From a virus (lineage: Duplodnaviria > Heunggongvirae > Uroviricota > Caudoviricetes), in IMG/VR virus record IMGVR_UViG_2671180543_000010: a stretch of DNA of 16,137 nt. One strand, written 5' to 3'. The position numbers and the translations under genes are program-made. Positions 13,533 to 14,200 of the stretch are shown one piece after another. Within the stretch, counting starts at the first letter, position 1. Each line of letters starts with the position of its first letter. The notes beneath the pieces are model-generated. The model had not been told where the DNA came from. It did no database searches and saw only the letters and a program-made list of their open reading frames with translations.

Positions 13533-13618
13533 AACGGCTCCTAGTTTACGTTGTTGGTTAGAAGCCCCGTTACTGCTCCTACAGTGCGGGGCTTTGCTTT
13601 TTGTGTTGATTGTGTGTA

Positions 13619-13634
13619 ATGTGTCACTACACAT
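13619..13634. promoter_or_regulatory. Palindromic operator candidate ATGTGT-cact-ACACAT in the divergent promoter region between the 66-aa gene and the Arc-like gene
   Basis: 6-bp inverted arms with 4-bp spacer, read directly; positioned where RHH repressors normally autoregulate. Confidence 0.45.
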
Positions 13635-13661
13635 AAATACATTACCTGAGGTGTAATTAAC

Positions 13662-13841
13662 GTGTCAACACACAAAAACGAAAGGCGTGGTAATCCTCCG
13701 TTCCAGTTCCGTTTAGATCCTGACTTACGGGAAAAGATGGAAAAGGCACAACAACAGGACGGCGATGATTCTCTTGCTGCCTGGATAAAGCGAATAATCC
13801 GCAAAGAATTACAGCAACGCGGCATAGAACCCAAAGGATAA
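13662..13841 (+). CDS. Arc/MetJ-type ribbon-helix-helix DNA-binding protein (59 aa, GTG start), divergent from the island operon
   Basis: Not in ORF track (GTG start, under 60 aa). PPFQFRLDPDLREKMEKAQQQDGDDSLAAWIKRIIRKEL parallels the Arc beta-strand/helix pattern (PQFNLRWPREVLDLV...NGRSVNSEIYQRVMESF); GAGGTG Shine-Dalgarno 10 nt upstream. Confidence 0.6.
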   Translation: MSTHKNERRGNPPFQFRLDPDLREKMEKAQQQDGDDSLAAWIKRIIRKELQQRGIEPKG

Positions 13842-13898
13842 AAACTATCAGCGCCGTGGTGTGAGGTACTACGGCGCATTGCTTTACAGGCGCACACA

Positions 13899-14075
13899 AT
13901 GACCAACGAAGAATCAACCGAAAAAACATCACCTGCACGAAAAAGACGACGCAGAAAGAAAGAGCATGAATCAGAACGATTCGCGCCGTGTTCTTTTGCC
14001 CTTGAGAAGTACCTTAAAGAATACTCATCAAAGGAGAGAACTTCGCAGTTATGGCAACGCACTGAACCAGACTGA
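13899..14075 (+). CDS. Possible 58-aa basic protein downstream of the Arc-like gene
   Basis: ORF between the Arc-like gene and a + strand terminator; no convincing Shine-Dalgarno; overlaps track ORF 13966..14295 in another frame. Confidence 0.25.
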   Translation: MTNEESTEKTSPARKRRRRKKEHESERFAPCSFALEKYLKEYSSKERTSQLWQRTEPD

Positions 14076-14166
14076 TTGCATTGCCCACCAGCCTGATAGC
14101 GGCTATCATCCCCGTGCTTATGTTTGGGATCACACACACAAACGGCGCAGCGGGTTATCTGTTCAG

Positions 14167-14200
14167 AAAGGCGGCTCCATTTCGGGGCCGCTTTTTTTAT
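14167..14200 (+). terminator. Intrinsic terminator (GC stem GCGGC...GCCGC followed by T7), probably bidirectional
   Basis: Hairpin plus TTTTTTT on + strand ends the Arc-like transcript; the reverse complement lies about 150 nt 3' of alpA. Confidence 0.45.

Follow-up and report, generated by a model that had tools for sequence, protein, structure and literature searches.

What keeps a phage satellite of Gram-negative bacteria silent in the chromosome of its host is the question raised by the DNA analysed here. The window, i.e. the whole stretch of 16,137 nt from the IMG/VR virus record IMGVR_UViG_2671180543_000010, contains host phoQ followed by a capsid-forming phage-inducible chromosomal island (cf-PICI). 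PICIs of Gram-positive bacteria are silent under a master repressor that is inactivated by helper phages; for Gram-negative PICIs the global repressor has been called 'unclear' and only the activator AlpA is known (PMC6092414). The gene or genes downstream of alpA form a variable region with no known function (bioRxiv 10.1101/2025.02.11.637232). In this region a first-pass annotation, made from the letters alone, had proposed an unannotated Arc-like ribbon-helix-helix (RHH) repressor gene that is divergent from the replication-side operon. Comparative sequence analysis was here used to examine this proposal. The unit is well supported by comparative evidence as an immunity-type switch composed of a putative RHH repressor and a predicted cis-antisense small RNA (sRNA), which would be a new control layer for Gram-negative satellites as far as the searched literature goes, where no description of an RHH repressor or of this sRNA in Gram-negative PICIs was found. 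It is likely, in our judgement, that repressor and antisense sRNA together keep the replication genes of the cf-PICI off and constitute an exchangeable, immunity-like cassette.

Is the small plus-strand open reading frame (ORF) a gene? The comparison covered about 150 loci in total, 80 of them gathered from one-genome-per-species contigs and a further 66 from IMG/VR PICI records (L084-L149). The two divergent genes are:

13662-13841, plus strand: RHH (Arc-like) regulator gene, 59 aa, GTG start, sequence VSTHKNERRGNPPFQFRLDPDLREKMEKAQQQDGDDSLAAWIKRIIRKELQQRGIEPKG
13332-13532, minus strand: Icd-like gene, 66 aa, heading the leftward Icd-like/DUF4222/D5-primase operon (NCBIfam NF033153 phage_ICD_like, 64.6 bits, E = 6e-18)

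The GTG start of the RHH gene is preceded by a Shine-Dalgarno (SD)-like GAGGTG at 13648-13653, and the ORF is intact in 80/80 collected loci and, with the relatives counted in full, in 83/83. In 36 unique sequences of the specificity class A described below, the plus frame contained 0 stops, with 0.79 synonymous (pS) and 0.12 nonsynonymous (pN) differences and a pN/pS of 0.148, whereas the best antisense frame, which shares its third positions with RHH, contained 12 stops (pS 0.55, pN 0.17, pN/pS 0.303). Because the ORF is intact in relatives, has the lower pN/pS and is free of stops, the RHH gene is real and under purifying selection; over its length, selection acts on the plus frame and not on the minus frame. 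The possibility that the region is non-coding in all relatives was checked in this way and does not agree with the data. The divergence from the replication-side operon was confirmed with the Icd-like gene as partner, and the control region shared by the two genes, given earlier as about 130 bp, measures 129 bp (13533-13661).

The protein family comprises 117 clusters at 90% identity from Enterobacterales, Orbales, Pasteurellales and Aeromonadales. Nearly all members, including the near-identical deposited proteins, carry the name 'hypothetical protein', and some are named 'HicB family' by JGI. The coding sequence WP_000103621.1, called by PGAP in E. coli RM10466, equals the protein of the window except for the last residue. 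The description of the gene as unannotated therefore holds for the ORF track used in the first-pass annotation and not for public databases. Gene-calling pipelines alternate at this position, reporting the small plus-strand genes in some genomes and a long minus-strand 'Icd-like' pseudo-ORF in others.

What kind of protein is encoded? The profile search that had been suggested for the 59-aa protein was performed and gave a significant match to PHROG 228 'Arc-like repressor' (E = 2.1e-6, 28.6 bits, residues 5-57; the PHROG library has no curated cut-off). No match was obtained among PDB chains by sequence profile. The AlphaFold2 model has a confidence (pLDDT) of 78, rising to about 90 over residues 21-50, and consists of an extended N-terminal segment and helices at residues 20-33 and 38-52. 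The top PDB matches of this model in Foldseek were RHH domains, namely NikR, Arc (1par/1bdv), MazE9 and ParD, with probabilities up to 0.84 and TM scores of 0.6-0.75. Pairwise hhalign comparisons, which were used for the register of the strand only and not for membership, placed NPPFQFRLD in register with the Arc strand MPQFNLRWP (weak, E = 0.003); the alignment with a YlcI/YnfO protein was also weak (E = 0.06). Features expected of the RHH superfamily were found, i.e. an N-terminal strand and two helices within about 45 residues and alternating, outward polar or basic residues in the strand. The hydrophobic/polar alternation persists although the five types of N-terminus differ otherwise, every class has R17, and the protein ends 7 residues after helix 2 with no extra domain. 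The earlier assignment of an RHH pattern to a GTG-initiated 59-aa ORF is thus borne out by profile and fold matches. Judged by its model, the protein is RHH-like, and it is most likely a DNA-binding repressor.

Where would such a repressor act? In the 129-bp control region and at the start of the RHH gene, the following elements were assigned:

13639-13668, minus strand: putative leftward promoter P_L (−35 TTGACA at 13668-13663, 18-bp spacer, −10 TAATGT at 13644-13639), facing P_R
13594-13622, plus strand: putative RHH promoter P_R (−35 TTGCTT at 13594-13599, 17-bp spacer, −10 TAATGT at 13617-13622)
13619-13634, no strand assigned: operator-like palindrome O1, ATGTGT-CACT-ACACAT, covering the −10/+1 region of P_R and the predicted P_L start site
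13662-13673, no strand assigned: operator-like palindrome O2, GTGT-CAAC-ACAC, overlapping the RHH start codon and the P_L −35, 41 bp from O1

The palindrome reported by the first-pass annotation is O1, which could be confirmed and proved to be a conserved, class-specific, operator-like site that overlaps both promoters. The core GTGT-N4-ACAC occurs twice in the 16-kb window (13621 and 13662) against 0.21 occurrences expected by chance. With regard to P_L, RHH codons 1-3 yield a perfect TTGACA on the opposite strand in 71/79 unique loci, and the codon for Ser2 is TCA in 72/74 cases, though synonymous sites elsewhere are near saturation. A TAnnnT hexamer follows this −35 at a distance of 15-20 nt (mostly 17-18) in 67/79 unique loci of all operator classes. 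With regard to P_R, most loci of classes A, B, C and E have their highest promoter score at a TTGnnn about −68 and a TAnnnT about −45 from the RHH start; in the window, its −35 overlaps the T-run of the sRNA terminator and its −10 the left arm of O1. P_L and P_R point towards each other, with overlapping predicted start sites inside O1. Due to the placement of O1 and O2 over both promoters, occupied operators would close the replication-side promoter and put the RHH gene under its own control.

An indirect indication of specific recognition comes from the relatives. All of them share helix 2 (WIKRIIRKELQxRGIEPKG) and differ in the strand and helix 1, by which at least five classes can be distinguished:

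Class A: strand PPFQFRLD; GTGT-N4-ACAC in 41/41 loci; two sites in 29/41 (−41 and 0)
Class B: strand NKQIALRVE; GTGT-N3-ACAC in 5/13 loci; two sites in 3/13
Class C: strand SPQYQMRL; GGTAATTACC in 12/14 loci; two sites in 10/14 (−41 and −10)
Class D: strand TDQYQIRL; TGTAATTACA in 2/2 loci; two sites in 2/2
Class E: strand NKQIAFRVE; GTGT-N3-ACAC in 4/4 loci; two sites in 1/4

GTGT-N4-ACAC was found in class A and in no other class. The only palindrome seen across classes was TGTAATTACA, as a single site in 4/41 class-A loci and in 1/14 class-C loci. Each class has one palindrome about 40 bp upstream and the other at the start codon, the latter at position 0 in 33/41 class-A loci and at −10/−11 in the case of the own palindromes of the other classes. 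At the positions of Arc Q9/N11/R13, class A has P-Q-R, classes B and E have Q-A-R, and classes C and D have Q-Q-R, which groups the classes in the same way as the operators do. Such co-variation of protein class and palindrome is what a repressor that recognises a specific sequence would show together with its cognate sites, and from it we infer binding; the class-specific palindromes at two fixed positions are an indirect indication that the protein may bind repeats as a dimer or higher oligomer.

The second component of the switch lies just upstream of P_R on the plus strand and begins inside the first gene of the leftward operon:

13491-13519, plus strand: putative sRNA promoter P_as (−35 TTGTGT at 13491-13496, 17-bp spacer, −10 TATGAT at 13514-13519), inside the 5′ codons of the Icd-like gene
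13526-13603, plus strand: predicted cis-antisense sRNA, about 78 nt; of its three helices, helix 2 has the anti-SD CCUC in its loop and helix 3 is the terminator
13561-13603, plus strand: predicted intrinsic terminator of the sRNA, a GC-rich stem-loop followed by TTTGCTTTTT

The first-pass annotation had described a large hairpin as part of the shared control region. The hairpin is present (13562-13594), with arms at 13562-13569 and 13587-13594, an inner ACTG/CAGT helix and a T-run that follows on the plus strand only. Its assignment was revised, however: it belongs to the sRNA and is best described, on comparative grounds, as the intrinsic terminator of a conserved plus-strand antisense transcript ending just upstream of P_R. 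The 79-nt stretch folds with −30.5 kcal/mol (z = −4.1). In an RNAalifold analysis of 54 distinct sequences, 14 of the 20 pairs were changed on both sides (103 compensatory cells), as were 10 of the 13 pairs of the terminator helix. Paired cells amounted to 96.8%, a value reached by 0/500 shuffles, and the structure is strand-asymmetric (96.8% paired cells on the plus strand vs 82.1% on the minus strand; 164 G.U vs 5 A.C cells). A covariance model (R1) built from the sRNA matched the window at 13526-13602 with 66.6 bits and gave 79 hits in the related sources searched (70/70 positive), each of them on the strand that does not carry the alpA frame. A TAnnnT hexamer is present at the aligned position of P_as, 42 nt upstream of the conserved stem-loop, in 72/72 unique genome loci (11 hexamer variants) and in 42/42 unique IMG/VR loci, and the N-termini encoded over it are unrelated (MADNQSTQT, MAKQKCT, MADANST, MANRYDS, MVAVNHI and others); the −35 of P_as is weak and variable.

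By its position the sRNA is complementary to the SD and ATG of the Icd-like gene (13530-13543), whose ribosome-binding site (RBS) has the form AGGAG-N5-ATG and whose homologues are the first genes in relatives. A putative promoter, antisense-strand structure, terminator and RBS complementarity, as known for cis-antisense translational repressor RNAs, were all found, with expression being predicted from the sequence. No Rfam family was obtained for the sRNA or hairpin, whether the whole window was searched at gathering scores or 13300-14400 at E <= 10; only terminator-shaped chance hits appeared. Since there was no covariance-model match, identity with C4/CI-type immunity RNA (Rfam C4, isrK) was rejected. 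The ORF 13121-13342 was also considered as the Icd-like gene and discarded in favour of 13332-13532, the true first gene of the leftward operon. As an additional observation, in minus-strand RNA over 13533-13560 a small hairpin has the SD of the first leftward gene in its loop; in most relatives it reads CGTTA...TAACG, with co-variation to CATTA...TAATG. This hairpin mirrors helix 2 of the sRNA and would allow a loop-loop kissing contact; the copy of the window itself is degenerate.

Both components are conserved in architecture and exchanged in content. Among the 66 IMG/VR PICI loci, in which alpA is 98-100% identical, the slot downstream of the sRNA is occupied by this RHH gene, by another RHH class or by YlcI/YnfO. 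The bona fide YlcI/YnfO proteins in the slot have 59 or 101 aa and score 60-63 bits, the 101-aa form having an extra C-terminal helical part. Sharing of the slot gives the uncharacterised YlcI/YnfO family a candidate role as repressor. Moreover, two sRNA-plus-RHH cassettes occur in tandem in several loci, for example a YlcI/YnfO type followed by an MST type in E. coli RM10466, and in some elements two adjacent RHH paralogues belong to different classes (tandem or paralogue loci: L002 3175-4238; L119-L121, L125, L146-L149; L026, L065, L076).

Taken together, the following mechanism is proposed. A dimer of the 59-aa RHH repressor would bind O1 (13619-13634) and O2 (13662-13673), thereby shutting P_L, the strong leftward promoter of the Icd-like/primase operon, and limiting P_R, the promoter of the RHH gene itself, in an autoregulatory manner. 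As a second layer, the sRNA starting inside the Icd-like gene would block Icd-like translation on transcripts that escape repression. Repressor and sRNA would form an immunity-like cassette with exchangeable specificity types that holds the integrated cf-PICI quiescent. The simplest way of induction would be helper-dependent activation of the alpA promoter, with leftward read-through across the cassette, antisense to the RHH gene.

Beside and beyond the RHH gene, in the direction of the integrase gene, the following features were assigned:

13851-13877, plus strand: stem-loop with a weak T-tract, 10 nt past the RHH stop, conserved in L001-L003
13899-14075, plus strand: small basic ORF2, 58 aa (phrog_21027, E = 3e-12)
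14167-14198, plus strand: strong intrinsic terminator, 14-bp stem followed by U7
13541-14344, minus strand: long open frame of 267 codons, with an ATG at 14287 that gives the '248-aa ORF' (13541-14287)
14345-14533, minus strand: alpA, 62 aa (Pfam Phage_AlpA, E = 5e-18), convergent with the RHH unit
14908-16137, minus strand: int, tyrosine integrase gene, convergent with the RHH gene

The long minus frame opens directly behind the alpA stop and continues the frame of alpA. It covers ORF2, the RHH gene, the two promoters and the terminator in antisense and closes 9 nt short of the ATG of the Icd-like gene. About 35 of 83 loci have it as an in-frame fusion with the first leftward gene, and in about 20 it is broken. 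It is matched by 998 database proteins named 'Icd-like' or 'ash family', and the N-terminal 150 residues of the frame are common to hundreds of such proteins. In P4, eta/kil have a corresponding place and logic downstream of vis (PMC10111431), and by analogy AlpA-activated transcription may be able to read through the cassette. As routes of induction, such an AlpA read-through bypass and the anti-repressor of a SaPI-type (Staphylococcus aureus pathogenicity island) reading are equally plausible; a helper-encoded anti-repressor is possible and is not indicated by the data. A wider proposal can be formulated, in which the cassette is the immunity switch of Gram-negative PICIs and cf-PICIs, the RHH/operator types are immunity groups, and the RHH gene lies antisense within a translated eta-like frame, such that AlpA-driven, translation-protected read-through collides with and silences the repressor gene without an anti-repressor. 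This proposal is put forward tentatively and is rather doubtful in its entirety.

The rightward unit was found to extend as predicted in part. The small basic ORF said to follow the RHH gene exists at 13899-14075 and is probably coding: it is uninterrupted and begins with ATG in 58/58 relatives, and its indels come in multiples of three. Its pN/pS is 0.48 vs 0.57 for the antisense frame, with stops in neither. It is missing from most loci that carry RHH, however, and is not a constant partner. ORF2 shares the plus frame of the RHH gene and follows it after the TAA stop and a further 19 sense codons (13842-13898); this interval includes the stem-loop 13851-13877, possibly a leaky terminator or a 3′ stabiliser of the RHH mRNA. 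The strong plus-strand terminator was located at 14167-14198, where it would end the rightward unit and possibly also a separate short RNA from 14081-14109. About 260 bp downstream of alpA (approximately 14081-14344) are nearly invariant among relatives with diverged flanks, and this block contains, besides the terminator, the promoter-like plus-strand sequence TTGCCC-N17-TATCAT (14081-14109); it could encode a second plus-strand RNA of about 85 nt, antisense to the eta-like frame.

Several observations weigh against the proposed repressor/sRNA switch. No RHH family (Arc PF03869, RHH_1 PF01402 or related) was matched in Pfam-A even at E <= 1, and the match to NCBIfam YlcI/YnfO (NF041551; 20.0 bits, E = 5e-4) stays below the 30-bit cut-off, so that the protein does not qualify as a member. 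The AlphaFold2 monomer has no DSSP strand, as expected because the RHH sheet forms only in the dimer, and the Foldseek E-values are about 1, as expected because a monomer of 59 residues is very small. In classes B and E the palindrome pattern is present in only part of the loci. A generic promoter scan returned no site in 13533-13661, P_L and P_R being based on hexamer conservation across loci; P_R is weak in the window (6/12), and by the consensus-based score another combination is one point higher there. Additionally, the overlapping minus frame is open in most loci, so that part of the sequence constraint could stem from the other strand. Finally, the support is comparative: DNA binding, repression, expression and action of the sRNA and the route of induction are inferred from comparison.

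In a rival view, the 248-aa minus-strand ORF, encoding an Eta or 'Icd-like' protein, is the real gene and the RHH ORF merely its shadow, without a function. In some E. coli genomes the minus frame is annotated by PGAP as a partial 'Icd-like protein' (L001 and L003), the 998 database matches speak for it, and it begins at the alpA stop and stays open in most loci, sometimes over more than 400 codons. Over the RHH segment, though, it has twice the pN/pS of the plus frame and 12 stops in 36 sequences against 0, and it is broken inside the RHH gene in about 20 loci. Its translation there is rich in Cys, Ser and Arg, crosses promoter and terminator and has no family match; moreover, a shadow frame cannot give rise to an RHH fold, to class-specific operators and to an RHH pattern kept in dissimilar N-termini. 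That the minus-strand ORF is the only real gene was therefore rejected over the RHH segment (12 stops, pN/pS 0.303), a rejection that does not extend to ORF2. The shadow explanation as such is extremely improbable, and both frames may be in use, which would not remove RHH. A different function for a real RHH protein would be that of an autoregulating type II antitoxin neutralising ORF2 or an Icd-like division inhibitor. Weak matches to VapB (E = 0.012) and to a HicB-like antitoxin PHROG (E = 0.2), the JGI name 'HicB family' for some members, the MazE9 and ParD domains in the Foldseek list and the annotation of Icd-like proteins as cell-division inhibitors are in line with this function, which we nevertheless regard as very unlikely: the 7 residues that follow helix 2 are no C-terminal extension for toxin binding that would qualify the protein as such an antitoxin, ORF2 is absent from most RHH loci and no conserved partner exists, the Icd-like gene is divergent instead of co-transcribed, and the RHH operators overlap the promoter that drives the whole replication operon. 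PADLOC gave no match for any partner, and a toxin-antitoxin or defence role was rejected on this basis and for lack of a conserved partner.

The resemblance to SaPI-type divergent repressors noted in the first-pass annotation concerns the induction of the element. In such an arrangement the RHH protein would be a master repressor like Stl, silencing the island until a helper-phage protein inactivates it by direct binding. The proposed role is shared, i.e. a replication module held silent from a divergent control region. In its favour are the divergence of RHH and the replication operon, the location of operator-like sites on a strong promoter, and the specificity classes, which are the pattern expected of a repressor in an arms race. 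Function and divergence thus agree with the resemblance, whereas the fold (Stl/Rpr type vs RHH), the size and the orientation to int do not. Stl is transcribed in the same direction as int (PMC6092414), and the Stl/Rpr layout, with the repressor co-oriented with int and divergent from xis/rep, is not seen here, where the RHH gene is convergent with int and alpA. The protein ends right after helix 2 and hence has no separate sensor domain, and its variable part is the DNA-reading half and not a putative partner surface. Furthermore, the published route of induction of Gram-negative PICIs is the helper-dependent activation of alpA, and overexpression of AlpA alone induces the island in the case of E. 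coli PICIs (PMC6092414). Inactivation of the RHH protein in the manner of Stl is therefore considered unlikely, and the repressor/antisense-sRNA switch is the explanation retained.

The carrier element is a cf-PICI next to phoQ. Host phoQ (1-1461, plus strand) adjoins the terminase end of the satellite directly on the left, and the satellite genes are on the minus strand. Pfam matches in the window comprise TerL, TerS, portal, prohead protease, major capsid, D5-type primase, DUF4222, AlpA and tyrosine integrase; tail or lysis genes were not found among the large ORFs scanned in the window. The combination of int, alpA and primase with own capsid, protease, portal, TerS and TerL and without tail or lysis genes corresponds to the cf-PICI definition listed in 10.1101/2025.02.11.637232. 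The region around the RHH unit is 100% identical to Shigella flexneri SFBU1023 (locus L004), and related cassettes are found in E. coli at other chromosomal sites, beside tqsA/pntB or roxA. The minus-strand ORFs 13121-13384 and 12976-13176 match positions 1-76 and 63-126 of the 154 positions of phrog_2512, and 12976-13384 looks like a single gene split by a frameshift.

With these results, the region downstream of alpA gains a testable architecture of leftward promoter, two operators, a swappable RHH gene and a conserved antisense RNA outside Rfam. If the switch operates as proposed, it would explain the quiescence of these widespread satellites and the hypervariability of the region, the latter as heteroimmunity between satellites, and it would be a source of orthogonal repressor/operator pairs and of a compact RNA regulator for PICI-based delivery vehicles. 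The conflict between small plus-strand genes and the long minus-strand 'Icd-like' pseudo-ORF is moreover flagged as an annotation problem.

Among known systems, the YlcI/YnfO family (NF041551) shares with the RHH protein the slot downstream of the sRNA in sister PICIs, a similar length, an RHH-like pattern and a sub-threshold match. It differs in that RHH reaches 20 bits instead of the 30-bit cut-off, at about 20% identity and with the weak hhalign value given above. YlcI/YnfO is listed only as 'prophage-associated protein', and YlcI/YnfO and 'HicB' entries are merely listed as accessory genes (PMC13612085). A tblastn search of RHH against 50,697 phage records gave 4 weak hits, none of them a P4 record.

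The immI region of P1/P7 has the order c4 RNA, icd and ant, and the immunity of P4 comprises CI RNA, seqA/seqC and eta/kil downstream of vis. In common with both, an Icd-like (icd/kil) gene heads the controlled operon and translational control is RNA-based, as is proposed here. The long ORF with an internal promoter after an alpA/vis homologue resembles P4 eta, and for P4 immunity CI RNA only and no protein repressor has been described (PMC10111431). The RNA proposed here is a cis-antisense RNA from the opposite strand, whereas theirs is a processed RNA of the same strand, and the Rfam C4 and isrK models are without match here.

The immI region of P22, which the proposed switch resembles in function, contains the RHH repressors Mnt and Arc, the promoters Pant and Pmnt and the sar antisense RNA. 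In comparison, the satellite has one RHH gene instead of two, without Pfam Arc/RHH membership; the controlled operon encodes an Icd-like protein and a primase instead of an antirepressor; the sRNA precedes the repressor gene on the same strand; and the element is a satellite and not a phage. Shared with P22 are small RHH repressors on palindromic operators at closely apposed, opposed promoters, as proposed for the satellite, with the strand in register with Arc and 'Arc-like repressor' as the best PHROG match, and a short cis-antisense RNA, predicted in the present case, that is complementary to the RBS of a gene in the repressed operon.

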